The notes beneath the pieces were generated by a model that worked only from the letters and a program-made list of their open reading frames with translations, had not been told where the DNA came from and did no database searches. This document shows, in pieces, positions 6,656 to 35,405 of a stretch of DNA of 64,000 nt (position 1 is its first letter; every line of letters begins with the position of its first letter). The stretch is from Nitrospirota bacterium (GTDB taxonomy: Bacteria; Nitrospirota; UBA9217). Where the stretch lies: assembly GCA_963818475.1 (NCBI GenBank), contig CAWFSF010000006.1, positions 2,080,001-2,144,000 on the forward strand, read 5' to 3'. A program made the translations under genes and the position numbers.

Positions 6656-9600
6656 CTAATTTATCAACTCCAACAGGTACCACTTCCTCTCCCAGACCTT
6701 GAGCAGTTCATCGAGCCCGGTGCGTAGAGCGGGTGCATCAATCGATAGCATTCGCACCTCCTCGATTGCCTGGAGGATGAGCTTGATGTTATCTTCAGCA
6801 ACCCTCCTGGTTCCGGCATTCGTATCCACGAGCATCAGAAGGTCGATGGCTTTCGCGACCCGATCAGCATCGGAAACCGTTTTGACGGCCAAGGCACGCA
6901 AGTCAGCGAGGACCATCCCGAGCTGTTCGCCGGAGCTGTTCTGCACGGTGAGCATAAGCTCATACTGGCCGTACGTCCTGAAGAACCCGTTATTGTTGTA
7001 GGCCAATTCGGTTTTCGTCAGGTAGCTGCCGGCCGCATCCGGAAGGTTGAGATAGTACCCGAATCCGGCCCTTTCGTTCGCCGTCATGGATTTCTGCCAT
7101 GTTAATGTGTCATCCACAGGCGTTACCCGAGGAACGACGGTGTCAACGGTCGCACCGTAAGGGAGGCTTTCGATCATCTTCATTTCCACAGGTTCGGTTG
7201 AATTCGTGACGGTTATCCTGATGGGCGCGCTCCCCAGGGCACTCGACGTTTGCGCCGCAGGCCGTACGAAGTTGAGGCTTTCGATGAGCAGTGCGGAAGC
7301 AAGCGACTGATCGTCCGCGTTCAGAAGATCGAAGGTGTAGAGAAGAACCTTGCCTCGTTCATACTGGTTGAAAACGACGGCAGGATAGACATCCTTCTTA
7401 TCGAGAACCGAGCCAAACATCTGAGCTGTCGTGGAGGTGATCGCCGATACGATGCTCTTTCCGGTTGCCCGGAGAGATCCCTCGATGCTGACAGGACTCT
7501 CTTGCAACGTTATCGTCAGGTTATCGCTGGTCGTCTTGCCAGAGAATTTCAGGCCGAAGGCGTCGTCCAGGAATGGATCTGCATTCGGTTTTGTCTTGAT
7601 GAAGATAAGCCCGTCACCGGAGAACACCGATTCCCGGATTTCCCCGCCGATGAGCGGGTCCTTGACATCGATCAGGATGTAGGTGTTGTATCTTCCTGAT
7701 CGAAGCGCTATCGTAAAGTCGTCCACTGTTTCAGTGACAGTATAGGTCAGATTGAGTGACGTCAGGAGTCTGTTCAACATCTGCAAATCTGCCTGCTTCT
7801 GAGCAAGGTCCGAATTGTCGCTCTCAACGCCGACAAGGATGATCGAGTCGGCTGCTGTCTTCTTCTCCATCTCCATGATGATCAGCCGCACGGTGATCGA
7901 TGTTTCAGCCTCTTCGTTCAGGACGTTGTCCGTCGCCCTATAAGCTAGAGTATATTGCCCTGCCTTCATCCCGGCAAGGCTGAAGCTTCCCGAATACACC
8001 TGCCATGCGCCATTATTGATGCGGTACGCGGCTGTTCTTACGCCGGATAAGGCATCAGCCGGCATCAAGCTGAAAGATGTCGAAGGAGACACCGTATTGA
8101 TTACACCCTCAATCAACGGGTCTGACGCCGAAATCGAGGTCTGCGGCGCTGTTTTGTCAAGGATGACGGCGAGTTCTTCTATGTCCCCGCGATTATCCAG
8201 GTTATCGACGGACCGATATCTGATTGTGCGGGTTCCCTCATTATAGGAAGACAGCGTGAACATGGTCGTATAAGCGCTCCACGGTCCTCCATCGATACTG
8301 TATTCGACTTTACTTACTCCGCTTACCGCGTCCACGGCAGTAATGGTTACTCCGGTGCTGCTGCTCACATACAGTTTTCCCTCAGACGGGTATTGAGGAA
8401 CTCCAACCGTTACCGTTGATACCGGCGCGGCATTGTCCACGATCACGGCAAGCGTCTTAAAGGTCTCCGTATTCAATACATTGTCCCTGCTATAGTAGTC
8501 GATCGAATGCATACCTTCAGAGGCAATCGTGAACGGCGCATATGTCGTCCATTCTCCGCCGTCTATCCGGTACTCGGTCAGAGCAGCGCCGGAGATATTG
8601 TCCGTCGCGGAAAGGATGAACGTCGTGGAACCCGTTACATAGAGCTTCCCGTCAGCCGCGGTATACTTCGGCTCGCCGGTCATAATGGTCGTCACCGGCG
8701 GGGTTTTGTCTGCAAGCACGGCAAGCGTCTTGAAGGTCTCAGCGTTGGATACGTTGTCCTTGCTGTAATAGTCGATCGTGTGCGTGCCTTCCGTTAAAAT
8801 TGCAAAAGGCGAATAGGTCGTCCATGCTCCACCGTCGATCCGGTACTCGGTGGCCGCAATACCGGAGAGATTATCAGCTGCGGCAAGCGTAACGGTTGTG
8901 CCGTCCGTGATGTACAGTTTCCCGTCAGCGGCAGTGAACTGCTGTCCGTTTGTTGTGATCGTTGTCAGCGGCGGCGTGTTGTCCACAATTGCTGCAAAGG
9001 TCTTATCCGGCTCGGAATTGGCAACATTGTCCCTGCTGTGATAAAGGATCGTATGGCTGCCTTCTGCCGGGATCCAAAAGGGAGCAGCCGTGATCCACGG
9101 CCCGGCATCCAGCTTGAATTCGGCCATGGCCACGCCGCTCAGGGCATCCACGGTTGAAAGCGTGAAGGACGTGTTTTGCGTGACATAAACGGAGCCGTCC
9201 GGTCCGATATACCTGGGCTCGCTCGAAGCGAGCGTCGTCACGGGGACTGTTGTGTCCAGTGTTACGGCAAGAGTATGATACTCTTCGGTGTTGGTTGCCC
9301 GGTCGACGGCCCGATAGTCCAGAGTGAGCGGTCCATCACTCATTCCTGCAAGTGCTGCCGGCGTCTGGTACACGTTCCACGCCGCCTCATTCGTCCGATA
9401 CTCGAGTTTGTCCACGCCGGACATGATCGTGCCCGGATCGGACCCAGCCAGGGTCAACGGAGTCGCGCCGGCAACGTAAAGCAGTCCGTTGCTCTCGAAC
9501 GTCGGCGATCCTATGGTCATCGTACTGGTGGGCCTGGTCTTGTCTATGAAGAACGCATAGACTTCGCTCAAGCTGTTTCCCGCCTTGTCCCGGGCTTGTA

Positions 9601-11116
9601 TCCGCAGCTCATAGTTGTTCTCCGCGGTAATCAGCGTCCCGCTCGTGTAGGCGTCCCCGTTCAGGGAGGTCTCCACCATTTCCAGATCGGCATCCGTCAC
9701 CGAGATGATCGGGCTGAGGTCCGTATTATAGTAGATGCCTTTTGCAATGCCGGCCACGGAGATCGCAGGCGGGGTCTTGTCAACGGTAAATGCAATTTCT
9801 TTCACGCTGCTGTTTCCGGCGGTGTCGGTCGCGGTGACCTTCAGAAGGTAATTCCCTTCCACGCTTATCGGAAGTTGAGCATAGGATATGCCGTTCAGCG
9901 TAATCTCGTTGAATGCAAGATTTTCATCCTGAACGGTAATGACCGGCTGGACGTCGGAAGGATAGTACACATTGTTCGATATGCCGCTGACCGTGATTCT
10001 CGGGGCAACGTCGTCCACTGCCGCGGCGTAAACGATAACGCCGGAGCTCTCGTTTCCATGGGCGTCGTAAGCGGTTATCCTGACCGGTGATGCCTGGCCC
10101 AGAGCGAGCCCGGACATTTCAACGCCGGTTGAGGCGGCATTCACAATGTCGCTTACCCGGACGCCGGAGGCGTTATAAACGCGGTATCCTGCGGTATCCG
10201 AAGACGGCGAAGGAAGCCAGGACAGTACTGCCGTGCCGCTCTCGTCCCCGGCTTTGTCAACAGCGTGAACATTGGTAACCTCGGATGGCGCAGTATTGAT
10301 GGCAAGATCAACGGCTGTTTCGCAGAGAAGCGTGGTCCCCGCATTTACCGACTGAACCAATACCGCATTGAGCGCATGTGTTCCCGTCGAATTGTCCAAT
10401 TCATACGCAGTTCCGAGAGAAAGTTTTGCCGTGGTCAATGCAGCCGTTGCGTCCTCGCCCGACAGTCCGATCAGGTTCGGCGCTTGCGTATAGCACTTCA
10501 AATCCACGGTGGCCCCCGTATTATTCTCGACGGGATAAACAGTGCTCCCCTCAAGCAAGGCGACATCGACAAGAGATATAACGATCTTCTCGGCTGCCGC
10601 CTGGCTGCCGGCGTTGATCTGAAAACGGGCGACGGTACCGCTGCCTGATGGCAGTGCGGCTCCGTTGGTCTGGCCCAGCGTGTATAACGCGGAACCATTC
10701 TGAAGTATTTCATTGTCCATCACGAGGATCCCGTGGGATCCTTTCGAATTCCAGAAGAAGTCACCGACTCCTGAGCGGCTGGTTGTGGCCGGACCGACGA
10801 TGAGCGGCGAGGAAACCGAAATGTCCCCCGGCTGGCCTTGGGCAGTATCCGAAACCGGCGCTACCGTGGATCCGGGCGCGCTTACGTTCAGCCGGAACTG
10901 GATGGCGCCCAGGCCTTCGGCAGGGATGCCCTCGACCACAACATCGGCGTAAAAGCTCTCTCCGGGCGTTACCTTGGAAGCGGACGGAACGACCTTGATA
11001 CCGGCTGCCGACGCTGTTCCCGCCATACAGCACAGCGCGAACGCAGCCAGGCAGGACGTCAGCAGGAGAGTTCCCGCTGTTCCGGACAATCGTGCGATCG
11101 GTGATTTACTGAACAT
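6656..11116 (-). CDS. Secreted scaffold: cohesin-like, PASTA, FN3, tandem Ig-like repeats, C-terminal domain (1486 aa)
   Basis: GGAGG RBS before ATG 11116; signal peptide; VTPGESFYADVVVEG..LGAIQFRL..GSGTVARFQI (cohesin-like); APNLIGLS..AVLVQS..AG (PASTA); repeated DxTxPxT..SG..EYRIDGGxW..H.I.YYS.D. Confidence 0.85.
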   Translation of the reverse strand: MFSKSPIARLSGTAGTLLLTSCLAAFALCCMAGTASAAGIKVVPSASKVTPGESFYADVVVEGIPAEGLGAIQFRLNVSAPGSTVAPVSDTAQGQPGDISVSSPLIVGPATTSRSGVGDFFWNSKGSHGILVMDNEILQNGSALYTLGQTNGAALPSGSGTVARFQINAGSQAAAEKIVISLVDVALLEGSTVYPVENNTGATVDLKCYTQAPNLIGLSGEDATAALTTAKLSLGTAYELDNSTGTHALNAVLVQSVNAGTTLLCETAVDLAINTAPSEVTNVHAVDKAGDESGTAVLSWLPSPSSDTAGYRVYNASGVRVSDIVNAASTGVEMSGLALGQASPVRITAYDAHGNESSGVIVYAAAVDDVAPRITVSGISNNVYYPSDVQPVITVQDENLAFNEITLNGISYAQLPISVEGNYLLKVTATDTAGNSSVKEIAFTVDKTPPAISVAGIAKGIYYNTDLSPIISVTDADLEMVETSLNGDAYTSGTLITAENNYELRIQARDKAGNSLSEVYAFFIDKTRPTSTMTIGSPTFESNGLLYVAGATPLTLAGSDPGTIMSGVDKLEYRTNEAAWNVYQTPAALAGMSDGPLTLDYRAVDRATNTEEYHTLAVTLDTTVPVTTLASSEPRYIGPDGSVYVTQNTSFTLSTVDALSGVAMAEFKLDAGPWITAAPFWIPAEGSHTILYHSRDNVANSEPDKTFAAIVDNTPPLTTITTNGQQFTAADGKLYITDGTTVTLAAADNLSGIAATEYRIDGGAWTTYSPFAILTEGTHTIDYYSKDNVSNAETFKTLAVLADKTPPVTTIMTGEPKYTAADGKLYVTGSTTFILSATDNISGAALTEYRIDGGEWTTYAPFTIASEGMHSIDYYSRDNVLNTETFKTLAVIVDNAAPVSTVTVGVPQYPSEGKLYVSSSTGVTITAVDAVSGVSKVEYSIDGGPWSAYTTMFTLSSYNEGTRTIRYRSVDNLDNRGDIEELAVILDKTAPQTSISASDPLIEGVINTVSPSTSFSLMPADALSGVRTAAYRINNGAWQVYSGSFSLAGMKAGQYTLAYRATDNVLNEEAETSITVRLIIMEMEKKTAADSIILVGVESDNSDLAQKQADLQMLNRLLTSLNLTYTVTETVDDFTIALRSGRYNTYILIDVKDPLIGGEIRESVFSGDGLIFIKTKPNADPFLDDAFGLKFSGKTTSDNLTITLQESPVSIEGSLRATGKSIVSAITSTTAQMFGSVLDKKDVYPAVVFNQYERGKVLLYTFDLLNADDQSLASALLIESLNFVRPAAQTSSALGSAPIRITVTNSTEPVEMKMIESLPYGATVDTVVPRVTPVDDTLTWQKSMTANERAGFGYYLNLPDAAGSYLTKTELAYNNNGFFRTYGQYELMLTVQNSSGEQLGMVLADLRALAVKTVSDADRVAKAIDLLMLVDTNAGTRRVAEDNIKLILQAIEEVRMLSIDAPALRTGLDELLKVWERKWYLLELIN

Positions 11117-12101
11117 CGGTCCTCCCGTATTCCTTCGAGAATTTCGAAAAATCACGAACATCCACTTTGCCTCCCGTGTCAGCCACGAAATCATAATCCG
11201 GGTTGTAGATGCCGTCATCGCGCGTGGTCCTGTATTGGGCCTTGAATGCTGCAAAGTCCTGGTCGTCGACCTTCCCATCAAGGTTGCTATCGGCAAAGAA
11301 GCCCGGCACCGGACCGACAATCGAAACGAGCGAGCTGTTCTGCGGCGCTTTCCTGTAATGGACCAGGGTGGCAAGATTTCCTGCCCGATAGATGCGCAGC
11401 GTGATCGTTTCATTACCCGCTACAATACTATTCGAGCCGTCGTCACCGAAGAGATTGTTCAGGTCCAGCATGCCTTCCGGAGAGACCGCTCCGTCACCGA
11501 CAAATGCGCTGATCGGATACAGGGAAGCCTCCTCTTCAAGGACGACCAGATCGCCTAAACCGGGCTCGGCTGCCGTGTCTGAGGGCCGGATATATACGGG
11601 AAAAGTCACGAGATCATTTGCAAGTGCCTGAACCATGCCGTTCACGGGACGATACAGTACAATGTTCGAGGCGGTGGTTACCTGCTGGAGCGCCGAGTAG
11701 CTGACGCTGCCGGGATTCAGCGAATCTCTCGTAACGGTCCTGACAGAATAGGTTGTCGCAGGCAGAACGCCCGACACGCGAACCTTGACGATCCCCTTTT
11801 CCCGTGCTGCCTGCGCAGCCTTGCTGATCGCCGCCGGCATCGGCGTAATGAGTATTCCTTCGGTCAACCGCTGCTGCAGAGAATTATCCGCATACACCTC
11901 TACCGACGGATCGGCAACGACATCGGTCATCCAGATTACGGAAAAAGAGGAAGGTGTGACATCGCTGACACGGACAGCGCTGGTTTCAGGAACAGCGTAA
12001 ACCGGCGATGCACACATACAAAATGCCAGATAAAGAATGAGGCTTGCGAAATGAAAATTGAAGGACTCCCCTATTCTCTGCTTGCATGTCAATCTTTTCA
12101 C
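11106..12101 (-). CDS. Secreted FN3-like protein with C-terminal dockerin-like domain
   Basis: GTG start overlapping the upstream stop; duplicated Ca-loops ADSNLDGKVDDQDF and YDFVADTGGKVDVRDF. Confidence 0.85.
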   Translation of the reverse strand: MKRLTCKQRIGESFNFHFASLILYLAFCMCASPVYAVPETSAVRVSDVTPSSFSVIWMTDVVADPSVEVYADNSLQQRLTEGILITPMPAAISKAAQAAREKGIVKVRVSGVLPATTYSVRTVTRDSLNPGSVSYSALQQVTTASNIVLYRPVNGMVQALANDLVTFPVYIRPSDTAAEPGLGDLVVLEEEASLYPISAFVGDGAVSPEGMLDLNNLFGDDGSNSIVAGNETITLRIYRAGNLATLVHYRKAPQNSSLVSIVGPVPGFFADSNLDGKVDDQDFAAFKAQYRTTRDDGIYNPDYDFVADTGGKVDVRDFSKFSKEYGRTDVQ

Positions 12102-12929
12102 CGCACACCTCCCGGGCAGGTCGGGCATGCCCCTGTTGTCTGCTGTTTGCGCAACTTCTCAGAAATCGTTGCCTCATATCCGCCGATCAGGTACCTGACA
12201 TCGTCTTTCGTACTCTGCAGTATCCTGTTGGTATATCCCTCAGCATCATCCGCAGCCGCAAAGATCAGGACCACAGGCAGCGGCTTCAGCATTTTCGCTG
12301 CAAGGTCCTTCTTTTTTCCCGTGCCCGCCAGCATGCTCTTCAGCTTTTCGACCCGTTCATCGAGGGTTTTGCCGGGAACAGGTTCGCTGTGTTGACTGGG
12401 CTGCTGCTTTTGTTTCTTTGCATCGCGCAGATCGTATACCTTCATCGGCACCGAACTGGCAATCGCCCATTTCAGGTCGGCGGCGGTCACTCCGCGGTCT
12501 GGCTCTTTGGTCTCGATAATCGGGAGGCCTTCTCTCTTCCATCCGGCAATCCCGCCCTCAAGCACAGACACCCGTTCATGCCCCTTTTTCACCAGCACCT
12601 GCGCCGCTTCACGTGCCGACTTCTGGCCGAGAGCATCATCAATGAGAATGAGCACCTTCTGCGGTGGAAATTTCTTGTGAATAAGAACGTCCGACGGAAT
12701 ATTGACCGAGCCTTCGATGTGGCCGGTTTCATAATTCGAGGCAGCCCGAACGTCTATCAGCCACAGGCCGCTCCCTTCGTTCATATAATTCATCACCCGC
12801 TGTCCGTCGACCCATTGCCAGCCGGTGGCGCGTGAGCGACGTCTCCAATGAGCAGAAGGGTTGTCATGCAAAGCAGCTGCACATTCAAAATTAGAAATTT
12901 AAAATTAAGATTTTCATTTTTGTATCCAT
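12098..12929 (-). CDS. Exported rhodanese-fold protein (N-terminus frameshifted)
   Basis: LIDVR, GHIEGS, LEGGIAGW motifs; signal peptide restored with two indels near 12830-12900; C-terminal CPTC. Confidence 0.75.
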
Positions 12930-12998
12930 AAAAAGACGTCAGCCGCAGTTCACCGAGAAGACCGCAAAAAAATTATATCATTGTCCAGATTTCCAAAC

Positions 12999-13093
12999 GC
13001 ATTTAGATTCGTTACTGATTTGCCCCTCACCTTTGTCCTCTCCCCAGCGGGGAGAGGGTAGGGAGAGGGGGGACTGTAACAATATTTAATTCG
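12999..13093. repeat. MITE/REP-like palindromic element, copy 1
   Basis: gcatttagattcgttactgatttgcccc..cctctcccc agc ggggagaggg..tgtaacaatattta; resembles 33906-34001. Confidence 0.7.
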
Positions 13094-13205
13094 TTTGCAT
13101 TAATAAACATAAGACTAAAGTTGACTTCTAAATCAAAAAAAATATATTCGGGCCCCTCGTTTTTGTTCGTGCTTTGCCCACTCCACAAGCCGCACTGGAG
13201 TGGAG

Positions 13206-16200
13206 TTAGGGTTTCCACCCATCCACCCGGTTTTTCATGATAACGATCAGTCCGTCGCCATGGTTGAGCACGAAATCGGCGCCTGCGGCGGACACATTCC
13301 CCAGCAGCTCGCGACGCACAGCAGCCGTCTCCCAGAGACCCGTCTGGTTGTTGAATCTCCGCACACTCTGTACATTATCGAGACCGATTGACTCGAGCAG
13401 GGTGTATGCCGTGTATCCGTTCGGGAGGGTGAGCATTCCGATGTAATTCGTGCCCGGAAGCAAAGTATATAAACCCGTTTCGCCGCTGTCGGCGACCTCC
13501 AAAGAACCGCTGTTTTCGGCATACAGACCGATTGCCATGCCCTTTTGCAGCGCAATATCTGCACCCGCTGATGTGTCCATGAAGGTCCCGTTCTGGCTGC
13601 TGTAAGCCACGACCTTTTCAATCCCGATCCCGTTTGAATTCGCTGCTATCAGCGAACTGGTCGTGGGATATGCTCCGGCGAATTTGTTCCCTACCGCAAT
13701 GAGATTGAGTCCGGGTTTGATCTCCACCGCAAGGGGAACGGCTTCCACCTGGAAAGGCGACCAGTAGATCCGGCTGATACCATCCCGGTCGTCCTGCCAG
13801 GCCAGCACGCCGTTCCCGAGCGCCGGTTCCTCCTGCCGGGCGGGGTTTGCCGTGAGCAGCGCCCCGAGGCCCGATTGCGCGTCAAAAAATGCAAGGTTCG
13901 GGTTGTCGATCCCTGCCTCGTAGTCCGTGTAGACGACGACCTTCTCCAGCACGGTCGCCTGTGAATGATCGCCAGCGCCGTAGGTCACCCGTATCTCACT
14001 GTTCGGCGCGGGCGAGTAATAGATATCTCTCTGGTTGTTCCTCTGATCTGTCCAGACAAGGGCGTTGCCGGAAAGTGAAGGCAGCGTCTGGTTGTAACTG
14101 TCCACGGTGTACCGTACCTCCGGTCCGCTCGTCAGATCGTACGTATAGATCTCCCCGAGGCCGTGCCGGTAATCTTCCCAGCTCAAACTCGTGCCTGCCA
14201 GGGCCGGATGCATCTGGTCCCGCACATGACTGATCATCTGCGTCTGATTGTGCGTTGTAAGATGGTAGGCAAAAATGTCCCAGTTCCCCTTCCGGTCATC
14301 CTGCCACGCAACCCAGTTTCCTGCGACAACAGGCCGTTCCTGGTTGCCTGCATCGTTGCAGATCAGGAATTCCTGATTCGTCGTCAGATCATAACCGTAG
14401 ATGTCCCAATTGCCGTTCCGGTTGTCCTGCCAGACAATGATGTTGCCGTCGATGGCCGGGTACTGGTGGTCTGAAGAATTGGCAGTGACGGCAACTGAAG
14501 AAGAACCTGCTGACGTATCCTTGGTATATATCTGCCAGGCGCCGCTCCGGTCATCCTGCCATACAACGCGCGTACCCGAGATCCTGGGATGCTGCTGCGC
14601 GCCCGCGACATTCGGGTCAAGCGGCTGTCCCGTGAACCAGTCAGCCACCGTGATCGGGATCGTTCGTGTGGTCGTATGGCTGGTGGTTGGACTGCTGTCG
14701 AGCCCGTCGGTAACGCTCAAACGAGCGGTATACGTGCCGGTCGGGACGAGCGTTCCAACCGAATCCCTGGCGTCCCACGAGAGAACCGCCTCAACATCTT
14801 TGGTCAATGCTGTTTTCAGGGTCCGGACGACCGCTGTCGGGGAATAGGTTTCTCCTTTTGCGATATCGATCGTTGCCTGGAGTGCGCTCTGGTCATCGGT
14901 GGCCTTGACCGCGAAGTTCGTTGTCCGGGCAGCTGCAATCCCTCTCGGGGCATAAGGCGAGATGGTGGAGGGCGACGCCTGGAAGGTAAGGACCGTCGGG
15001 GCGTTATCGTCAACCACGATGGTCGCTGTCTTAGTAGTTTCCGTGTTCCCTGCCCGGTCCACGCTGTAGTATTCAAGCGTATAGGTCCCGGGATCTTCAA
15101 TAGTGAATGGATAGGCCGGGATAAAATCTTCATCTATCCCCGTAACCTTTTCGAACATCTGGCCGACGCCGCTTCCTTCGTCATTGTCCGTTCCAAGGAG
15201 AACGACCCTCGTTGCGGTCGTGATGTAGTACGTCGGATCTGTTCCGGTCGCAGGTCCATCAAAGATAACTCGCGTGCTCGGCGGGAAGGTATCTTCCGCA
15301 GGCTGAGTGAAGACGAGTTTATACGTGCCGGGGGCGGAGGCATCGGCCCGATAATCAAGTAAGTTCAGGCTGAATATCTGCTTATAGTTCGTGTCCAGGC
15401 CTTCCTGTATCCAGAAGTTGTTCGGATCGAGGTGAACACCGTCTGCCCGCACCACGTCGAGCAACGTGAGCATCCCCTGCGCCGGATCAGGGAGCCGCGC
15501 ATATAGCCATCCGGTCGTACCTGTCTGGAGCGACACCAGGACCTCCGGTGCTGATGGCGTGGGCCGTGCCGGAGGCGTCACCACCTGCATAACAGCGACG
15601 GGAGAGCGGGCATCGTCGGTTTTTCCCGTATTGCCAGGTATTTCGGATTCAAAGATCGAGTCCGGCAGACGATCTGTGTTTTTGGTCAGGTCCGTTGAAT
15701 AAGCGAGAAAATCAAGCCGGCTGTCACGGCCCGGCAGGTTCACCTTGACCCGGTGCGTCAGGTAGTGAGTATTTGTTTCCTTAAGAAGCGATGTAAGCTC
15801 GCCTCCGAGTTCGGAATCATGAGAGAACGTCGCCTTGAACTCGGTTATCCGGCCGCTCAGCGTCGAGATCATCTCCCAAAAGGCCGTCGCGATCTTCATG
15901 CTGTCGAGGGTCCCGATGGAAACGGTGAGCGATGGGGAAACGGCGCTGTCGTTGACGGCGGATCCGATAAGCTTGAAGTCTACGAGCAAACCCTGCTCGT
16001 TCTCGACGATCTTCGGCTGGGCTGATTCGATCTTGAGGTTGATCGCAGGTCCGTAACCGTCATTCAAAACGCGGACAGCCAAAGGATACGGGATCGGAGC
16101 TTCAACCTGGGAGGTAAAGGGGTTGTCCCCGAGCACTTCGTAGGGGGTGAAATAATCAAGAACAAGCTGCGCTTCGGGTTTTACGATGATCCGGTCGGGA

Positions 16201-16668
16201 TTCACGGTAACCACTTCCTGTTTGCCGGCAACAGTGTACGTCAGTGTTGCGCCCACCCAGTATATCTGGCCGGTCGATACTGTTCCGCCTGCGCCGGGCG
16301 ACGGAATGATCAGCCAGTGAATTTCTGCCGCGGTAGCCGCCTTCACTGTTCCCGTGCCGTCCACTGCCGCGATGTTTTGCACTGATGAAACCCGGGTGAA
16401 AAAAATGGGATTTTGCCACTTTCCCTTCGTCGTCCTTGATGGTCACATCTACGCGGATATTGGTAAGGTCCTTGTCGGGAACGTTGTTGGTGATGACCAT
16501 TTTCGCGTCGAATGCGATCCGTTCGAGAGTGAGTTCCTGGAGAATCTCTATTTTGACCTCGGAACAAGCTCCTATGGCGCAGGAGGTGCGGGGCGCAGCA
16601 AGGAATGATAGGACAAGCGCCGCGAATATGAGAAGCAGATTACGATATTTTCTTTTTTTAGCGTCCAT
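13206..16668 (-). CDS. Secreted protein: uncharacterised N-domain, Ig, FlgD-Ig, beta-propeller repeats (frameshift ~16400)
   Basis: ATG 16668 with signal peptide; joins track ORFs 16156..16758 and 13206..16382 at an A7 run; repeats of the VVWQDxRxGxWDIY type. Confidence 0.85.
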
Positions 16669-16827
16669 ATTCCCTTCCCTGCTGTAAGTTAGCCTCAAAG
16701 ACTCAATGAAATAATTTTTTCTGCCGCTATGCTTTATCCGTGTCCGATCGGTGCTCATCGTAGGGCTAACCCGATACTACATCTCTCTCATTCCGTACTC
16801 TGCATTCCAAATTCTGCGGTCTGATCG

Positions 16828-25900: not shown

Positions 25901-28900
25901 TCGAGCACACCCCTCCTGAGGGTAGTCCCCTCTTTCAGGCCGAGCGTTAGATCGGGTAGTGCTACCTCTTTGACCGGGCTTTCATTCTCCAGATTGTCCA
26001 CTGCGGAGACGCCGTAGGTCGTGTTCGACGCACCATAGCCATCGGTATAGGAGAGATCCAATACCGGGTACGGCGTAACGCGGCTTCCGTTCCGGTAGAT
26101 ATGATAGCCTGCAATAGTGCCGTCCTGCGGCGACTGCCAGGTGATCGTGGGAGCAGCATCATCGATACGCTGGAGCACCAGATTTCTTACCGGAGACACC
26201 GGGAAATCGATCTCCTTGATCTCAGACAGCAGGCCTTCATTCCCGAGGCTGTCCACGGCGGCAACTGCATAGAAGCGATAGGTTTTCGAAGGCGAAGCGT
26301 CCACTGCCGTCGAGATCGGGACCTTTGCCACGGGCGTGAGACCGGTTGATGAGGTAAACGCGGCGTTCGACCGGTACAGATGATAGCCCTTGAGAGGCAG
26401 TACGGATTGAGAATCGACCACTGCGTCCCAAGTCGCGGAGACGCCGCCGCTTCCGAGAGAAAGCGATAAATTCTGAGGAGCAGGAGGTCCTGTCCTGTCG
26501 GAGACTGCCTGCACTTCGGCAGAGAGCGGGCTCTCGCTTCCCATAAGGCCCACGGATGTTATTGCATAGTAGTAAGTGCCGTCATCCGGCGGCGTGTCCT
26601 GGGCCGGCGATCCTGCACTTCCGGTTATAACCTTTGTCGGGGACGATTCATTCTCCGCTCTGCGGTAGACGTTGTAGGTAATGGCAGAGCCGCCTATGTT
26701 GTTCAGCTGTTCGTACATGACCGGGTACCAGGTAAGCGTGACTGCGCCTGCCTTTTCCGATTTCGCTGCAAGGCCGTCCGGTATTCCGGGGGACGGCACC
26801 TGATCGCGGTACAGCAGGATATACCGGCCTGTAGAGACGATAGTGCCCACATTTCCGAGTGTATCTTGTGCTGAGTTCATGATGAACTCGGCCTTGCCCT
26901 CGGGCATGCTGGAGACATTGAGGGATCCCGCCCAATGAATGCCATTGTCCGTCGACGTCATGCCGCTTACGAGCGAGGTCGTTCCATCCGACCCCTTGAG
27001 GGTAATTTCAGGTGTCACGACTGAAGCTTCATTCAGGATGACGGCAACGGCAGCAGGATCGGACTTGATCTGCAAGGTCGCCGCTGGAGATTGGACTGCG
27101 GCTTCCGGTCCTTTGACGTCGATGGTGATGCCTGCCCCCTGCCCGTTCCCGCGATTTCCGACCATGTCCTTGCCCGAGAATTTGTACGTTGTCGCTCCCT
27201 GAGGGCTTTGTGCGGTGATCGTGAAGGCGCCGTCGTAGTGCGTGTCGTCCACCTTGTTCATCGTGACCACGATGGGAGAGCCTTCCTGCGGCTCGAGGCT
27301 GAAGAACGGCAGCTCCTTGAGCTTCTCGCTCACCGTGACCGCAACTTCCACGCTGCCCGGACCGACAGCCGAGTTCGGAGTTATGAGTTGTGAGTTCTGT
27401 TTGTATTGGATAGTTGCGACGGACGGCGCAGTCCCGTCCGTAGACAGTGCTGCAACATTCGATATCCCGCTCTCGTTGCCTGCGCTGTCCAAAGCCGTTA
27501 CGGCATAGTACCTGAAGCCGTCGTCTCCAGGGTTGTATTCCTTGTACTGGTACGTTATCGGAGAAGTGTTCGTCGCCGTCACCCCTGCGTCCGTCTTTGA
27601 ACTGAAGGAGGACGGACTCATATACAGGTTGTAACCTGAAGGCATCTCACCCGTCGGGCTCGTCCAGGTAAAGCGCAAAAGCCCTCCTGTCAGGACCTGT
27701 GCAGCAAGATTCTGAGGAGCGGGAGGTGCGCCGGTGTCGACCAGGATCTTGTAATCCGGCGCATAGGCGCTCTCGCCTCCGCGATGGCTCGCCTTGACTG
27801 CAAGGACATTGTCTCCTTCAACAAGTGCTATGGACGGGAAGGTGAATGTTCCCGTTCCTGTCGTACCTGCGGTCTGGGCCGTGTTGACAACGACACCGTT
27901 CACTTTAAGCGTGACGGTCGTGAAGAGCGGGGCCGTGCCCGTTGCGGTCACTATATAGCTGGGTGTCGTCTGTGTCTCGCTATGGCCCGTGATCTTCGGG
28001 GAAGCGGGCTGTGCAAGACTCACGATGACCTGTCGCGGGTCTTCGGTTGCGTTCCCTTTGCTGTCCGTTGCCCTGAGCTTGATCGTATGATTGCCGTCGG
28101 TCGCAGCAACCACATTCCAGAAGTAAGAAAGGCTGCCACCGTTCTGGGTCGCAACAACGGTGCCATCGATGGAAAGCTCCATCGAGCCCATCGTGCTTTC
28201 AACATCATACGCTGTTGCGGTGATCGTGATCGGCCCGGTGACCACCTGGCCGGTGATGATCGAGAAGGTATCGATGGCCGGTCCTGTTGAGTCGGCCAGG
28301 GGTGTCACGCTTATGCTCTGGACATCGGACCGCTCGGCGCCTGATGTGTTCAGTACCGTGACCGCGTATTGATAAGTGGTGTCGTTTGTGAGGCCCGTGG
28401 CGTTGTAGGTCGTTGCAGTCTTGGCAACATTACCGACCAGGGTCATCGTGCCGATGCTGGTCAGTTGCGCTGTCGAAGGTTTGCTGTAAATATTGTATTG
28501 CTTCACGTACGGCGAACTTACCGCGCTCCAGGAGAGTGCAGCCTTGCCGCTGCTTGTTGCGGCGGTGAGATTCGTGGGGTTCGCGAGCCGCGTTACCGCT
28601 TCGACCACAGCGCCACGGCTCTCATGACCGAGCGTGTCTTTGACCGTTATTTTGAACTTGTACTTCGTTGCGTCGGAGAGCCCCGTTTTCGTATAGGTCG
28701 CTGCCGTCTTTCCGAGCGGCGTTCCGGTGTCGTACCCTGTCCCGCCGTCCACGTACACGATATGGTCCGCGAGATCATTGGTGGAGTTAAGGCTGGCATT
28801 CCAGGTGATGGCAATGAAGTTTCCTTGCGTGTCTGCGTAATCGGCTGCCGCAGCAAGATTCGTGACATCTTCGGGAGCCTTTGTATCGGTCGGCACTGCC

Positions 28901-31900
28901 GATGCGATATTCACGGTATCGATCTGGTTCCCTGCCTGATCCACTGGCACGACTGCGAAATAGTAGGTGGTTCCCTGAGTAAGCGCCGTTGCGGTGTAGG
29001 TCCTGGTGCCGTTGTTCACCGTGCCGATGGGTATCATGCCGGCGACATCGCCAAAGACCGAGAGAGATTGGTAGACGACGTAGTAGCCGACGTCGGGCGT
29101 CTCGGGATAGGCCGTCCACGACAAGGTTGCCTCAGTGCCGTTGCCGCTGCCGTCCGCAATGAGCACACCGGGGCCGAGCGGCGCGGGAGGAGCGGTATCG
29201 TACAGAATATCGACCGTCCTGGTCGTGGTGTTTCCGAGCGCGTCGGCCGCGGTGAAGACATAGCGATTCGTAATACTCGATATCAGGTTTGCGTCATAGG
29301 ACCAGGTGTCGCTGATATCGGCCGGGCCGTAAAGCTGCGTGTCGCCGAGCTTCACGATACAGCCCGGCTCCTTCGTTCCGGTCAGGGTCTGCGTTGCCAC
29401 CGACGACGGGTTCTGATAGGTGTTCACGGTGAACGTCGGCGGAGTAGTGTCGAGCACGATGGCCGCGGTCGTGGGAACCGAATTGTTCCCTGCCGCGTCG
29501 CGGGCCGTGATGGAGAGTGCATTCGTGCCCTCGGAGAGGGGGTAGCTGTAGCTCCATGGTTCACCCGTTGTCGGGTTCGGATCTGCAGCAACCCGCTGAG
29601 TCCCATTGATGTAGATGGCTGAGCCGAGTTCTCTGGCGCCTTTCAGGATCTGGTTCCGGTTGTTGGTGGGCGTTGTGACGTTATCCAGGCCTGGTGATGC
29701 AGGCGGTGTTGTGTCGAGGACAAAGGTGCCGGTCGCGGCACTGGTCATCACGTTCCCGGCTATGTCTTGGGCTCCCGATACATTTACGGTATAGGTGCCG
29801 TCGCCAGTCCCGCTGCTGAACGTATGACTGCCGTTCCAAGTCTTGTTGTAGTTGCTCCAGCTTTTGCCAGTCCAAACTGGCGTTATGGTACAGAAGATGA
29901 GACAAGAAGACTTCACAAATGAAACCGACGGGTCGATGGTTGTGGACATCGGCTCATTGAATGTGATACTGAACTGCACGCTCTCGGTCTTGTGCGGGCT
30001 TGTGGGGCTCATGGTGAGAGACTGGACCGTGGGCAGTCCTGTATCCAGGGTGAAGCTGAAGGTAAGCGTTATCGTAGTTTCGAGCTGGTCAACGGGTTTT
30101 ATCTTGACCGTGTACACTCCGTCTCCCAAAACAGTACCTGGATCAGGCGTGAACACAATATGGCCGCCGGCTTGCGTGGTCCATGAACCGCTGATGACCG
30201 TGTTGTTCGAATACGTGACCTCATTGTTTTGGATCGACGCCTGAAGATCGACGCCTGAATTATCGTCAACCAAGACGATGTCGATTGATGCGAGCTGGTT
30301 CGTGAATCCGTTGATAGAAGGCGTTGTGGACGATATCCTCGGAGCAGTGGTGTCCCTGACAACATTCACGGTTACCGACTGACTCGGGTTGCCGGCCTCG
30401 TCCTGCGCAAAGACGACGAAAGCGTTATTCCCTTCGCTCGTGAGGTTAACGGGATAACTCCATGCACTATCACCATATGCCGCGCCGGTCTTGACATTGT
30501 TGACGAACAGGTATGAACCCGCTTCCTTCGTTCCGGCTAAGGTAATCGAACTCAGCTTCGTCGGCGTTGACTGAGGAGTGACGATTGGTGCAGCCGGAGG
30601 AAGCGTGTCCACGGTGAAGGTCATTTGCGCTGAAGGGCTCGGGTTCGCTGCCTGATCAACGGCATATGCAGTAACAGTGTTGCTTCCTTCGTCCAGTCCG
30701 GATACCGTGACGCTCCAGGTGAGGGCTGTAGGATAGGATACGGCGCCGACTGTCGCGCCTGCGCATGCGGCTATGATCTTTATTGAATCCAGGCTCTTCG
30801 TGCCGTTAATCGTCTTTGTGGTCGTGCGGCTCGGAACGAGTATGGGATCGATCGTCGGAGGCGGAGGCGGCGTGGCGTCAACCGTGAAGGTCATACTATA
30901 AGATGAACGGTTGCCCAGCAGGTCGGTCGGGTGTATCGTGGCCGTATAGGTTCCTTCGGTCATGGTATCGTCCGGTGTGAACGTTACTGCTGCAGTTGAA
31001 CCTCCGCCGGACGTGGCCCAGGTGCCCGAGGGATCGGCGCCGGATGTTTTTGTTACAGAAGCACCGGTCAGAGTTGCGTCCAGGTCGATGGTGGAGAACG
31101 GCTCACTGAGGTTGAATTTGATCGATCCGACCGATGTATTGAACAATCCATTGTTGACCGGGTCAGTGCTTAAAACATCCGGCGAACTCAGGTCGAGGGC
31201 AACGGGAACGAGGACAGCCTGACTATGGAACCCATCGGCATCCATTGCCGTGAAGCTCAGGTTGTTCATGCCAGGCTGCAGGGTATAACTCGCCTGCCAG
31301 GTAGTTTGACTGTCGAGCGGAACTATCGTTGTTCCATTCACGACGATGGCTGTTTCGGCAGGTTTGGAGCCGCTAAGCGTGATGGTCGAAGAAGTAGTCG
31401 GAGTCTGCACCGGTTCAACCGTCGGCGGCTGGATGCTGTAGGAGCGGTAGTTTTCCTGGATCTCCGTGTCCGAAAGCGCGCGGTTGTAAATGGCTACATC
31501 GTCGATTGAACCCTTATACGGCCCGTAGGTGGCAACATTGCCAAATGTTGTAGAAGCATAGACATTCTCCCGCAGGCTTAACAGTCCGGTTTTAACAAAT
31601 TGTCCGTTCAAATACAATCTAGGTTGCTTATTTTCGTACACCACCGCAATGTGATTCCAAGCGGCTAGCGATACGTTGTGGACAAGCAGAGACGGCAGAT
31701 AGCTGCTCCCATGTTCAAATACACTGATCCCGTTGGTTCCCACCGATATTCCCACTCCTGCATCGTTATTACCACCATGTGCAGGGCCAACAGCATATCG
31801 TTGAGCACTCGTGCCTGAAATACCCGAGTTGCTTTCGGAAGTAACATTGCGGGTGGCGGTAGGATATGCCCATAGCATGACAGTAAAAGTATTTGCTGCT

Positions 31901-33861
31901 CCGGCATAAGAACCGGCACCTGCCATTGCATAATCATCAACACCATCAAAACTTCCGGCATAGGTCCCGATCTTGGCGCTTGAGGTGAACGTAGCGCCGC
32001 TGTACGGCGTCGCATGGTTGCCGATGACTGATGAATCCTGCCAATCATTATCCATGTGCCATAGACCTACGAGACCTGTCTTGTTGATCCTTATTTCGCC
32101 GGACTTTGTCGCTTCGACGTTTCCGGATTTGTCCGTAGACCGGTATGAGAGCGTGTTCACTCCATCGGTGTCCAGCCCAAAGGATGACGTATACGTTACC
32201 CATGAAGTCCCGTCTAAACTATATTCGATCCTTGCAATGCCGGACCCTTCACCACCGTCCGAAGCCGTCAACGTTATGGTGACTGCGGAAGAATACCAGC
32301 CATCTTTTCCCTTGGTCTCTTTCAGGGACAGTGTCGTGATTGGAGCTGACGTATCGTGGGTGGTGAACGCGATCTGCTGCTGGCCCTTGTTTCCGACAGC
32401 GTCCGCGGGGTAAATCGTAACCAGGTAGCTATCGGAAGGAAGCGGCGTTGTGGACGGTGTGAAAATAATCGTTTTTGTTCCTGAATTCATCCACAAACCC
32501 GAAACTGCCTGGCCGTCGGAATTCTTTATTGTGGCATCCACCCTGCTTTCGTCAAGATTGATGGAGGAATAAATATCAGTCAGATTGATCGCGACCGATG
32601 TTACCGGTCTGGCCGTATCGGAATTATTCGCCGGGTACGTGCTTTCTATTACCGGCGGCATATTGTCATAGATGACCGATTTTGATACGGGAGAACTTTG
32701 TTTGAATGTTGCATCAACGGCGACGATGTTCAGGAGATTTACTCCCGGCAGGAGAGTACCGTATGTTCCTAGCCATGCTGCAGTGTTGTCGAGCGGAGCG
32801 ATTTTCTTATTGTTCACCCAGATGGAGGTGCTGATTGTCTTGCTCCCAGAGAGCGTAATGGTGCTGGTACCGACCACAGCGGGCACGGGATCGAGAATAG
32901 GAGAAGGCGGGGCTGCTGGATCACCGGGAACGGCATTGGCATGTAATGCGATTTCTTCTGGTGTGAGGGCACGTTTATAAATGGCGACTTCATCGGTGAG
33001 ACCGTTAAAATATTGAACTCCGGAAGGGTCGCGCCCAAGGTTAAGGGGGGTAGTGCTCACTTTAAGAGCCGTAATTGTTGACGTTTTCGCTTGGACAGCC
33101 TGTATCCCATTTACATACAGATTGAGTACGCCGGCGTTGAACGTAGCTGCCACGTGATTCCATGCATTCACGATAATGGGCGCGGTTGTGGTAGCAAGAT
33201 TATCATATGCTGTGCCGGTGCCGCTGATGTCTACCCGCAGATTGCCTGACGGTGCAAGCCCGAATTGGTAGGAATAATTTCCCGAGCTGCCGAACTTGCT
33301 CACGATCTGGCGGTAGTTGCCGATGTCGCCTGGTTTAATCCATGCTTCCAGCGTCATGGCCGTCGTAAGGTCCAGGCTGGCGCTGTCTGCCACTTGAATA
33401 AAACTGCTGCTCCCGTTAAAACTGACAGCCTGTGTCCCGCCGTGATTATCAGTCGTAAATGCAGGTGCATTAACAGGAGCTCCATTGTTATTATTGCCTG
33501 ATGAATCAGCCCAATCTCCATCCATGTGCCACAGACCGACAAGATCCGGGTCACCCTGGTTCTCCGGATTCACTGCCAGTGTCACCGGCTTGCCCATGTA
33601 CATGCCGTCCGCTGACGTGAATGGATAAGACACGCTCACCGGCTTGCTGTCCAGCTCGCCATGCATCCCGGTCGGAACAGCAACGCTCACCGGTTTGCTG
33701 TCCAGTTCACCGTTTACCGAAGTAGGTACGGCGACAGAGACGGGGTAGGAGATGGTATTGGCTCCCACATTGGTGACACCTGCAGGAAATAGCAGTACAT
33801 AAGAGATCAGTATGTTCAACAGGGCTCTAAATTTCATTAGTGTCCTTTGACTTTCCGTCAT
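19942..33861 (-). CDS. Giant secreted protein (~4,640 aa): 2 LamG, many Ig/FN3, Cys-rich repeats, 2 PKD, C-terminal papain-like domain; 5 apparent frameshifts
   Basis: Six track ORFs read as one continuous domain series with indels near 24890, 24368, 23410, 21252, 20301; LVGLWHMD (LamG) twice; TYFWDFGDG (PKD) twice. Confidence 0.8.
21564..23282 (-). repeat. 25 tandem coding repeats of 66-69 bp (CDDGxPCTxDxCxxGGCxxxPxD)
   Basis: Counted in translation: 23 units of 23 aa plus 2 of 22 aa; resembles the Dictyostelium CTDC repeat. Confidence 0.92.
25095..25134. repeat. REP-like element embedded in frame in the giant gene
   Basis: ccccctcacccccgccctctcccgcgagggtagaggg, same core as the intergenic copies; encodes TPSTLAGEGGGEG. 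Confidence 0.65.
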
Positions 33862-33905: not shown

Positions 33906-34001
33906 GCATTTAAATTCATTACTGCTTTGCCCACGTTAGCCCTCTCCCCACAGGGGAGAGGGTTGGGTGAGGGGATTTTCAAGATGTAACAAAGCTATTT
34001 A
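33906..34001. repeat. MITE/REP-like palindromic element, copy 2
   Basis: gcatttaaattcattactgctttgccc..ccctctcccc aca ggggagaggg..tgtaacaaagctattta. Confidence 0.7.
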
Positions 34002-35405
34002 CGATTTCAACTGCTTCGCCGGTATTTCCTTGCCGCTCGCGGTGATATAGGTCATCGTGGAACCGCCACCCATGGCCGCTTCTACCCGTACCTTCTCAAT
34101 CAGTTCCCCCTGAGCATAGATCGGTCCCATGCCGAGAGAGGCAAGCTGGAACGTCACGGATGCAGTCAGAATAGATGGATAGGCTTTAGATATGTTTATC
34201 TGGATAGAAGCGGAAGACGAGGTGTCTGTTCCAGCCAGAGTTCCCGTCGCCGTCGTAGCCGTCCCGACAGCAGGAGACGCCTTGAGCGTGATCGTAGTGT
34301 TGGCAGGAATATTTGCGCCTGCAAGGACTACCGTAATTGGATTCTGCATATTAAACGGCAGCATCATATCAGGTGACCCGTAAGAACCTTTAGGAACGGA
34401 AGGAGAGTCCACACCGCCCGCTGAAGTAATAGTGAGCGTCGGCATGTTCTGCGGAACAACGGCATAGGGATAATCAAGGGAGAAAGGGGGGGTCGTTCCA
34501 GCTGTCCGCGTGACGCTCGAAGCTTCAAGACGAATTCTACCAATACCACCAGCACCACCGAAACCCCAGCTTGAAGAACCGCCGGTGCCACCAGTAGCAG
34601 ATAGCGTGCCATTCCCGGAAATAGTATTTGCGATGAGCCTTATACCTCCGCCACTACCACCACCACCGCTGCCAGCGTATCCATTACTTTCCCCGAGTGC
34701 ACCTGTTCCCCCATTAGCAGTGATAGCGCCGGTAAGATTAATAATGCCGGACGACGCGATAACAATTGCACCGCCCCCTCCGCCACCCGCTCCACCTACT
34801 AAATTTGTGTTACCAGAACCTCCACCACCACCAGACCCTCCAATTTGAGGAAGAATCCGTTCATTTCCGTAACTGGAACCTCCTGCACCGCCCGTAGAAG
34901 AAGAATAAGTGCCACCAGTTCCACCATTTACCGCAAATCCACCACCACCGCCGCCACCCGCAGGATTACCGTTGGCTGTGTTTGGAGAAGCTCCCCAGCC
35001 ACCCCCAGGCCCCTCGCCTCTTTTGCCAGCCTGAATCACAACCCCGCCTTGTCCACCATCAAAACCGCCGGGCCCGCCAACTCCCGGAATTATATAACTA
35101 CCGCTAGAACCATTAAGATTAATGGTTCCGGCAATCGTCACGTCACCCGTAGTGAGCATCGTTACCGGAGTATTCTGCGAGTTCTTCTTGAACGTGACCG
35201 TCACTCCGGAAGGGATATTGATGGTCGTAAAGTTGAATATGCCGCTTTCCGGGATCTGCAGTACCGTATTGCTCGTCGGCGCAAATTCACCGTCCGCGCC
35301 GGTGCTGCCGCTGTCGAATGCGGCATACGCCGCACGACCGGGCAAGATGCATAGCGCCAGGATCAAGAAGCTCAACATAACCTTACTCAGTGCGTACCGT
35401 TTCAT
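33999..35405 (-). CDS. Secreted glycine-rich protein, first gene of the cluster
   Basis: AGGAGG RBS; signal peptide ending AYA; GGGGGGG, GGSGGGGG, GGGSGGGIRL segments. Confidence 0.9.
   Translation of the reverse strand: MKRYALSKVMLSFLILALCILPGRAAYAAFDSGSTGADGEFAPTSNTVLQIPESGIFNFTTINIPSGVTVTFKKNSQNTPVTMLTTGDVTIAGTINLNGSSGSYIIPGVGGPGGFDGGQGGVVIQAGKRGEGPGGGWGASPNTANGNPAGGGGGGGFAVNGGTGGTYSSSTGGAGGSSYGNERILPQIGGSGGGGGSGNTNLVGGAGGGGGGAIVIASSGIINLTGAITANGGTGALGESNGYAGSGGGGSGGGIRLIANTISGNGTLSATGGTGGSSSWGFGGAGGIGRIRLEASSVTRTAGTTPPFSLDYPYAVVPQNMPTLTITSAGGVDSPSVPKGSYGSPDMMLPFNMQNPITVVLAGANIPANTTITLKASPAVGTATTATGTLAGTDTSSSASIQINISKAYPSILTASVTFQLASLGMGPIYAQGELIEKVRVEAAMGGGSTMTYITASGKEIPAKQLKS

Follow-up and report, generated by a model that had tools for sequence, protein, structure and literature searches.

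A nine-gene locus for exported proteins in a Nitrospirota genome, probably a Sec-dependent polymorphic toxin system whose trunk and accessory gene set appear new

The DNA considered here, hereafter the window, is a stretch of 64,000 nucleotides from a Nitrospirota bacterium (contig CAWFSF010000006.1 of assembly GCA_963818475.1, positions 2,080,001 to 2,144,000), in which nine genes, all on the minus strand, span positions 6656-35405. Among their products are a giant exported protein with a predicted toxin domain at its C-terminus, a candidate immunity protein and a set of accessory proteins, and we read the locus, with a probability of roughly 0.7, as a polymorphic toxin system of the Sec-dependent class, in which both the trunk and the accessory gene set appear to be new. 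The co-orientation of the nine genes and their order agree with an initial annotation of this DNA, as seen from both the open reading frames (ORFs) and the Pfam matches. From the first gene to the last, the features of the locus are as follows:

33999..35405, minus strand: Gly-rich exported protein, 468 aa, first gene (ORF and leader)
19942..33861, minus strand: giant exported protein, ~4,640 aa when read as one gene, in six ORF pieces
24781..33861, minus strand: piece B1 of the giant, 3,026 aa, with signal peptide, two LamG, Big_13, fn3, Big_7, OmpL47-type and other Ig-like domains (Pfam, NCBIfam)
23420..24890, minus strand: pieces B2 and B3 of the giant, conserved pre-toxin module, frameshifts near 24890 and 24365
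20480..23408, minus strand: variable region of the giant with Gly linker, 20 Dicty_CTDC Cys-rich repeats and two PKD domains, frameshifts near 23410 and 21250
19942..20480, minus strand: predicted C-terminal toxin domain of the giant, permuted NlpC/P60, TseH-like, frameshift near 20300
19176..19889, minus strand: exported ankyrin-repeat protein, 237 aa, candidate immunity protein (Ank_2 6.9e-29, leader)
18208..19086, minus strand: putative DsbA-like selenoprotein, in-frame TGA at 18640-18642, hairpin at ~18595-18612
16828..18183, minus strand: DacB/PBP4-type D-Ala-D-Ala carboxypeptidase/endopeptidase (Peptidase_S13 8.5e-57)
13206..16668, minus strand: propeller protein, ~1,150 aa, frameshift at a T7 run near 16395
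12098..12871, minus strand: rhodanese-like protein (Rhodanese 1.2e-16) with C-terminal CPTC, N-terminus garbled in this copy
11106..12128, minus strand: FN3-like protein ending in a dockerin-like module with two Ca loops (Dockerin_1 E 0.077)
6656..11116, minus strand: protein with a cohesin-like head, 1,486 aa, followed by PASTA, fn3, Big, six OmpL47-type domains and a C-terminal domain of ~400 aa
6591-6617, minus strand: terminator-like hairpin, 12-bp stem with 8 G-C pairs

In regard to the domain content, 17 proteins of the window were scanned with Pfam, and NCBIfam was searched in addition. The Pfam matches comprised two LamG domains, Big_13, fn3 and other Ig-type domains, 20 Dicty_CTDC Cys repeats and two PKD domains, as well as Ankyrin, DSBA, Peptidase_S13, FlgD_ig, Rhodanese and PASTA, and the two libraries together gave TolB-like and Msarc-type propeller repeats and OmpL47-type domains. 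No RHS, two-partner secretion (TPS), autotransporter, type I (T1SS) or type VI secretion system (T6SS) family was found by Pfam among these 17 proteins, in agreement with the earlier statement that no RHS, TpsB, autotransporter, T1SS or T6SS gene is visible. Signal peptides had been claimed for all nine products; leaders, called here and below by eye from the sequences, can be seen in seven of them, and none is visible in this copy of DacB or of the rhodanese-like protein. The single closing terminator proposed earlier corresponds to the G+C-rich hairpin listed above, which lies ~38 nt past the last stop codon and is followed by TTTT on the minus strand. Both motifs suggested as baits are present, CSEVKIEILQELTLERIAFDA in ORF 16156-16758 of the propeller gene and VTWSVVPTTIQDKYEI in ORF 23285-24367, which is piece B3 of the giant.

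In this assembly the giant is divided into six ORFs (24781-33861, 24333-24890, 23285-24367, 21147-23540, 20294-21352 and 19942-20310), joined by five frameshifts, and to that extent the single protein of ~4,640 aa announced by the initial annotation is not what the assembled sequence holds. Its reading as one gene is nevertheless upheld by P0127, a protein of 1,340 aa from a different metagenome assembly, which matches the last 1,340 aa of the giant at 99.3-100% identity and runs unbroken across three of the junctions, with 100% identity on either side of two of them, and by the giants of five related loci (L017, L018, L019, L022 and L032), which are single ORFs through the remaining two junctions (B1-B2-B3). 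One more frameshift, at the T7 run near 16395, interrupts the propeller gene, whose homologues are unbroken at ~1,150 aa. Within the same window glyS is broken at profile positions 368/372, an FGGY kinase gene at 141/140 and a GH57 gene at 93/80. Because housekeeping genes are split as well, the source genome consists of 7 contigs with 91% completeness, P0127 is unbroken and the orthologues are single ORFs, the frame breaks are most likely assembly errors. The giant is thus read, from these sequence comparisons, as one gene for ~4,640 aa, and its continuity in P0127 and in the orthologues speaks against several unrelated genes. These broken genes, together with a PPDK-like ORF that begins at profile position 140, lie at 45804-47337, 54668-56753, 58451-60656 and 51871-53916 of the window. 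Since the assembly appears error-prone throughout, pseudogene calls in this genome need care.

Synteny of these genes is also seen in other phyla, above what chance would give. With the N-terminal 340 residues of the propeller protein as query, 877 proteins were found at E<=1e-3 among 7,999 candidates scored; the best 120 of the 877, the window's own sequence excepted, show 59-86% identity and derive from Nitrospirota/Thermodesulfovibrionales, Geobacter, Desulfuromonas and other Desulfobacterota. All products of the window were then compared by tblastn with 39 loci from other genomes (one genome per species), 27 of which hold a relative of the full propeller protein. Around it the dockerin-like gene is found in 25, the rhodanese-like gene in 23, the cohesin-like head in 21 and the DacB gene in 20 of these 27 propeller-type loci, several of the missing genes falling at contig ends, so the expected co-occurrence of homologues is seen for the helper genes. 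The B2 and B3 modules of the giant were each detected in 9/27, the DsbA gene in 6/27 and the Gly-rich gene in 5/27, and DsbA does not belong to the core. The gene order is circularly permuted between lineages, the two arrangements being giant-X-DsbA-DacB-propeller-rhodanese-dockerin-cohesin and DacB-propeller-rhodanese-dockerin-cohesin-Gly-rich-giant. The distribution of the locus is patchy: the N-terminal domain of the propeller protein (N-domain) occurs in 10 of 401 genomes of the phylum, the window's included, and in none of five in the genus, and among 40 relatives there were no full-length propeller orthologues, only repeat-level matches.

Comparison of the giant with its relatives establishes, at the level of sequence, that its C-terminal cassette is swappable. 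The C-terminal half of B1 shares 45-52% identity with the giants of seven loci (L017, L018, L019, L022, L027, L032 and L034), and behind it B2-B3 contains a HYDIN/VesB-like Ig domain, a CarboxypepD_reg-like domain, the 'VTWSVVPTTIQDKYEI' domain and a Cys-containing linker, the invariant Cys residues coming after the B3 module. Twelve giants have sequence flanking B3 on either side. Across their 66 pairs the module itself can always be aligned (30-68% identity), the region after it in only 13. The genes following the giant are diverse, with only three similar pairs among 10 genes compared, and most of them encode leaders; the C-terminus and the next gene thus both vary behind a conserved trunk. 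None of the 39 related loci gave a tblastn match to the window's own Cys-repeat block, PKD piece, toxin piece or ankyrin gene (for the Cys-repeat/PKD region, at a length of at least 100 aa). Its cassette is also compositionally foreign, with a GC content of 0.44 in the toxin part and 0.385 in the ankyrin gene, compared to 0.55-0.57 in the trunk.

What stands behind B3 in the relatives includes modules of other toxin systems. There, L034 has DUF6531, RHS repeats and an RHS core, L039, L040 and L044 have RHS repeats and core in the same ORF, and L038 (Cystobacter fuscus) has RHS, PT-HINT and Tox-HNH-EHHH, followed by Imm50, a toxin/immunity pairing listed by Zhang et al. 2012 (PMC3482391). B3 is combined with RHS in the database proteins P0126 and P0137 as well, according to precomputed domains, and P0140, a weaker B3 match (E 6.4e-36), likewise has RHS domains. 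L018 and L032 share a tail (31% identity) together with the next gene (37% identity). The locus is read as a polymorphic toxin system because three defining features of such systems are found: homologues that keep the N-terminal trunk but differ in the C-terminal domain, tail modules common to other delivery systems (Tox-HNH-EHHH, XVIPCD-linked, TseH-like fold) and, in the relatives, a downstream gene that varies together with the tail (Imm50 in L038; L018 and L032).

The predicted toxin domain of the window, formed by the last 166 residues of the giant, matched no Pfam model. It has 155 relatives at E<=1e-3 among 341 shorter candidates scored, including free-standing forms of ~160 aa and some tails of 'RHS repeat-associated' fragments, and in P0153 and P0187 it begins directly after a ...DPxGL motif, which we take to be the end of the Rhs core. 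Precomputed domains show it fused to X-Tfes_XVIPCD in five relatives (a re-scan of P0225 gave 24.1 bits for this model, just below the Pfam cut-off of 24.9), and one fusion to LysM was seen. It was found in one of 400 gammaproteobacterial genomes scored and in none of the five genomes behind L038, L044, L046, L049 and L050. Invariant in the family are the His of GHAW, WPDxH and the Cys of NTC, with the His preceding the Cys. Structural comparison made use of an AlphaFold (AF2) model of a proxy, P0143 (55% identical, pLDDT 88). The best Foldseek match was the H-box/NC protein 2A of Aichivirus (E 0.015), and the top match of an all-against-all structure aligner was TseH (6v98_A, Z 9.3, rmsd 3.7 A, 122 residues), followed by YiiX (Z 7.2), DUF862 (6.8), Aichivirus 2A (6.2), MARTX RID (5.8), the cysteine peptidase 3kw0 (5.3), CLN5 (4.8) and PLAAT4 (4.1), most of which, we assume, have a papain-like or permuted NlpC/P60 fold. 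Atlas leads for the domain, TseH and IcsB_M, agree with this match.

Judging from the modelled proxy, the window's giant ends in a permuted NlpC/P60 domain, predicted to be a TseH-type Cys-His hydrolase, and the earlier description of the giant as toxin-tipped gains support both from this domain and from its kin in RHS-associated tails and XVIPCD fusions. It resembles TseH (Vibrio cholerae) and Tox-Act1 (Salmonella) in the permuted NlpC/P60 fold and the His-before-Cys order. On the other hand, the sequence identity is ~10%, and those toxins are delivered by the T6SS, whereas the window domain, as read from the genes, is the tail of a giant Sec-exported protein. Permuted NlpC/P60 domains are used as antibacterial toxin modules in T6SS effectors, where they target lipids, and TseH has phospholipase activity (PMC12994826); together with the fold evidence, this leads us to predict an envelope-directed, probably lipid-directed Cys-His hydrolase. 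Such a toxin would act from the periplasm on the envelope of neighbouring bacteria, and, by analogy, membrane phospholipid is a more likely target than peptidoglycan.

Immunity was surveyed in 69 loci with the toxin domain (68 from metagenomes and L059), 63 of which have a downstream ORF. One family of ~115-135 aa stands downstream of the toxin domain in 41 of the 63 (within L061-L123); lipoprotein-type leaders are present in the eight members inspected, and this is probably the main immunity family of the toxin. A second and a third family account for 6 and 3 loci, respectively. The ankyrin-repeat protein of the window has a counterpart in L060, where an exported ankyrin protein with 23% identity (E 9e-13) follows the toxin domain, and Imm-ank is listed as an immunity type (PMC3482391). 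Its position, its leader, this one recurrence and the known Imm-ank class make it a candidate, which would act as a periplasmic immunity protein; exported immunity proteins fit a periplasmic site of toxin action.

The propeller protein consists of a leader, a conserved Cys, the all-beta N-domain of ~420 aa, OmpL47-type and FlgD-Ig domains, a TolB-like propeller and a C-terminal domain. Precomputed tables list PF26549 for propeller proteins, seemingly for the C-terminal half, judging from which matches carry it. An invariant Cys opens the N-domain, 1-4 residues past the point where the leader is predicted, by eye, to be cleaved, and its model (pLDDT 91.5) consists of tandem beta-sandwiches. No Pfam or NCBIfam model matched the family, and fold searches returned only generic tandem Ig-like sandwiches (Foldseek TM<0.25; best Z 8.3 with the structure aligner VIA, on residues 16-131 and tied with many others). 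A profile of it collects 3,340 representative clusters (50% identity), and 2,187 of these reach E<=1e-30. Among the 150 proteins listed, all but two have an N-domain that begins no later than residue 107 and a length of 405-3,971 aa, and the C-terminal parts of N-domain proteins are of adhesin type (He_PIG, cadherin-like, SdrD_B, FG-GAP, TSP3, Golvesin_C). In Nitrospirota, Desulfuromonadia, Myxococcota, Gammaproteobacteria and Acidobacteriota, the loci examined have the N-domain gene beside a giant whose cassette is of Rhs or another toxin type. Twelve loci have the N-domain without the propeller; the B3 module adjoins it in 5/12 and, by a looser test, a giant-like gene in 9/12. In two of the gammaproteobacterial loci the genes for the giant and the N-domain protein have, next to them or separating them, a gene for a Transglut_core protein (L044:8723-9625 and L046:11991-12980; E 3e-24 and 2e-25, respectively), which may be a processing or anchoring factor replacing the cohesin/dockerin set.

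The two exceptions among the 150 are P0263 (7,485 aa) and P0264 (3,746 aa), which look eukaryotic and in which B2-B3 and the N-domain alternate three and two times, separated by spacers of ~330 aa with RxKR motifs and with the N-domain Cys kept. P0264 has a teneurin-type EGF match, and a cadherin-like repeat, a Ser/Thr-rich stretch and a C-terminal membrane anchor can be recognised by eye in P0263. No homology between B2-B3 and the N-domain was detected by hhalign (probability 0.6%), and the occurrence of natural proteins fusing both in alternation suggests that the two work together. The giant would accordingly pair with the propeller protein via the N-domain, in keeping with the adjacency of their genes in several phyla and the alternating fusions, and a disulfide could possibly form between the invariant first Cys of the mature N-domain and the conserved Cys behind B3.

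Among the helper genes, the DsbA-like gene has a TGA at the first Cys position of CxxC (Q-U-P-F-C when translated), and a hairpin of 7 bp follows 31 nt further on; the DsbA genes of L017 and L019 are split at this position as well. UGA at the redox Cys, a SECIS-like hairpin and a SelD-like AIRS protein in the window together point to a DsbA-like selenoprotein. DsbA-like selenoproteins are listed as a family by Zhang et al. 2006 (PMC1794560), and the window's protein resembles them in the TGA at the first Cys of CxxC and the downstream hairpin, with the difference that the copies of the window, L017 and L019 sit inside a toxin locus, to which they are accessory. The SelD-like ORF (40115-40861) covers AIRS_C in part only and is flanked by two TauE/SafE exporter genes (39117-39953 and 43954-44862), with a methyltransferase at 41093-41800; the region 39117-44862 may be a selenium-handling neighbourhood beside the selenoprotein-encoding locus. 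The DacB assignment is backed by TIGR00666, which scores 174.9 bits where the cut-off is 107.8. The rhodanese-like protein has, by eye, an Asp at the presumed catalytic Cys position, and its homologues carry a leader and, in 14/15, a C-terminal CxxC. Between the propeller and rhodanese genes lies an AT-rich segment of ~330 nt (12872-13205, GC 0.40) with no long ORF; it holds remnants of the rhodanese leader (cf. L016), which are out of frame and therefore imply several indels.

The cohesin and dockerin modules claimed by the initial annotation are recovered as weak but consistent signals, both of them below the Pfam thresholds. Dockerin_1 (PF00404) matches 12 of 17 members of the dockerin-protein family at E<=0.1, the best at 1.4e-3, and Pur_ac_phosph_N matches 17/17; a PDB profile search returned the dockerin chain 2vn5_B, weakly (E 0.042). 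Cohesin (PF00963) covers profile positions 5-130/139 at E 1.1e-3 with 19.6 bits, below the cut-off of 24.1, and the PDB profile match of the head is Scaffoldin C (5lxv_A, E 8.6e-4); the same protein has PASTA at 9.1e-5 and an OmpL47 domain at 5.6e-100. A comparable arrangement is that of Cag_2038, with a C-terminal dockerin, and its neighbour Cag_2037, with an N-terminal cohesin, of Chlorobium chlorochromatii (bioRxiv 10.64898/2026.03.19.712371). As there and in cellulosomes, the window has a gene with a C-terminal dockerin-like module next to a gene with an N-terminal cohesin-like one, and the two proteins that bear them are Ig-rich. Unlike in known cohesin-dockerin systems, these modules are set within a toxin locus and score below the Pfam cut-offs, and the cluster contains no carbohydrate-active enzyme and no T1SS/RTX.

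The Gly-rich protein encoded at the start of the cluster belongs to no Pfam or NCBIfam family; it forms an eight-member alignment at 47-61% identity, a PDB profile search gave nothing meaningful (only ribosomal L15 at E 0.035), and an Atlas search gave unnamed clusters only. The Gly-rich gene stands immediately ahead of the giant in Geothermobacter hydrogeniphilus HR-1 too, with housekeeping genes upstream, so the boundary of the cluster is the same there. Just upstream of the window's cluster lies a tRNA-Met (CAT) gene (35964-36040, minus strand), between the cluster and a gene for an exported Ig-repeat protein (36085-37557). It was considered as an island attachment site and rejected, as the tRNA end is unrepeated in 1-35000 except for a chance-level 11-mer. 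Just outside the other end of the cluster, a fused MsrA-MsrB methionine sulfoxide reductase (PMSR and SelR) is encoded at 2591-3718 on the plus strand.

The conserved trunk of the giant (lectin-like LamG, many Ig-type domains, B2-B3 and the Cys linker) carries an exchangeable cassette at its C-terminal end. In the mechanism that we propose, the dockerin-like protein of the Desulfuromonadia/Nitrospirota form would dock on the cohesin-like one, while PASTA, the TolB-like propeller and DacB would tie or fit the assembly to peptidoglycan, and DsbA and the CxxC-tailed pseudo-rhodanese would handle its many cysteines. That these parts make up a multi-subunit machine is what we infer from the conserved neighbourhood, the sub-threshold cohesin and dockerin signals and the domain fusion.

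Several observations weigh against the toxin system as proposed. The toxin fold is taken from a proxy with 55% identity, whose best Foldseek E was 0.015, the ankyrin gene recurs beside the toxin in 1/63 loci, with a 23% match that may reflect generic repeats, DsbA is found in only 6/27 propeller-type loci, and both cohesin and dockerin signals fall below the Pfam cut-offs and give weak matches in the PDB. Pfam showed the cluster to hold no outer-membrane channel, no ATPase and no known secretion gene, and export beyond the periplasm is therefore an assumption. Being periplasmic themes in diderms, PASTA, the TolB-like propeller and DacB would fit a periplasmic assembly equally well. Such an assembly could be protective, in the manner of bacterial alpha-2-macroglobulin and its penicillin-binding protein, with the giant staying in the periplasm. 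Sec leaders as the only export signals, the addition of DsbA to these periplasmic themes and the presence of PF01835, presumably the macroglobulin MG2 domain, in the giant relatives P0128 and P0136 (precomputed domains) would agree with it, as would the likeness of the first N-domain sandwich to MG domains (Z 6.5-7.8), which it shares with many other sandwiches. However, neither a thioester (CxEQ), nor a bait region, nor an A2M family was found in the window's giant by Pfam and NCBIfam, and a swappable toxin with an immunity gene and Rhs cassettes would be out of place in a protease trap, which makes this explanation quite improbable.

Somewhat better placed, yet still unlikely, is a system for adhesion between cells or between cell and matrix, with the giant and the N-domain protein as adhesins that keep aggregates or partners joined and with a variable tail that serves recognition and not killing. 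LamG and Ig-type domains dominate the giant and N-domain proteins bear diverse adhesin-type C-terminal parts; cohesin/dockerin proteins have been proposed as adhesins in syntrophic sulfate reducers (PMC10553843), and the neighbouring dockerin/cohesin pair of Chlorochromatium has been modelled as a cell bridge (bioRxiv 10.64898/2026.03.19.712371). The tails, though, are established toxin modules (Tox-HNH-EHHH with Imm50, RHS cores, the TseH-like domain), and adhesion is compatible with toxin delivery, so it would mostly be a sub-function of it. Finally, the frameshifts could be genuine and the giant and propeller genes pseudogenes in this genome, the locus having decayed. At least seven frame breaks inside 29 kb fit such decay, and one junction resembles, by eye, a 4-nt insertion (GCGC) instead of a homopolymer slip; yet the essential glyS and other housekeeping genes of the window are broken at a like density in an assembly of 7 contigs and 91% completeness, and P0127 is intact and 100% identical on either side of two junctions, so we hold decay to be very improbable, the least probable of the three.

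The polymorphic toxin system preferred here can be compared with those already known. With the Rhs/YD proteins of the Sec-dependent 'T2SS' class (PMC3482391), including WapA, it shares the signal peptide, a long filament-like trunk, an exchangeable toxin and an adjacent immunity gene, and relatives of the giant carry DUF6531, RHS repeats and core, PT-HINT and Tox-HNH-EHHH with Imm50. It differs in that the window's giant has no RHS repeat or core by Pfam, and no Pfam or NCBIfam model covers the LamG/Ig and B2-B3 trunk, the N-domain family or the accessory set. CdiA/CdiB, which belong to the type V secretion system (T5SS), and MafB of Neisseria resemble it as large exported diderm proteins with a variable C-terminal toxin and an immunity gene; MafB, too, has a signal peptide only and no known route through the outer membrane. 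The cluster, in contrast, has by Pfam no TPS domain, FHA repeats, CdiB/TpsB barrel or MafB-N (DUF1020), and, unlike T6SS effectors, no PAAR, VgrG or adaptor is fused or adjacent to the giant within it. The initial annotation had placed the locus outside the RHS, contact-dependent inhibition (CDI) and Maf classes, which holds for the window's giant, as it has no RHS, CDI or MafB-N features, but not for its family, where B3 is followed by RHS in seven relatives. No description of this gene set was found in the open-access literature, subscription journals lying outside the search, and the trunk with B2-B3, the N-domain partner family and the accessory set appear to be new. A further, tentative idea, to which we give clearly less than even odds, is that B2-B3 and the N-domain form a two-chain joint, perhaps locked in bacteria by a disulfide through the locus's own DsbA and made by RxKR cleavage in the fused eukaryote-like kin, and that this joint is the core of an undescribed pathway, which with a peptidoglycan-anchored cohesin/dockerin scaffold would display and release Rhs and other toxins from diderms without T5SS or T6SS.

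Sec-dependent polymorphic toxins of diderms are a large class whose route to the target cell is unknown, and Table 1 of PMC3482391 gives only '-' for the signature neighbour genes of the Sec-dependent class. The present locus offers a candidate helper set for this class, for which that table lists none. The TseH-like toxin domain, widespread and unnamed, is added to the known toxin repertoire together with what is probably its main immunity family, of lipoprotein type. The N-domain family is present in strains that are harmless and in culture, namely Geothermobacter hydrogeniphilus HR-1, Geotalea toluenoxydans JCM 15764 and Cystobacter fuscus, which makes the proposed system testable at the bench.

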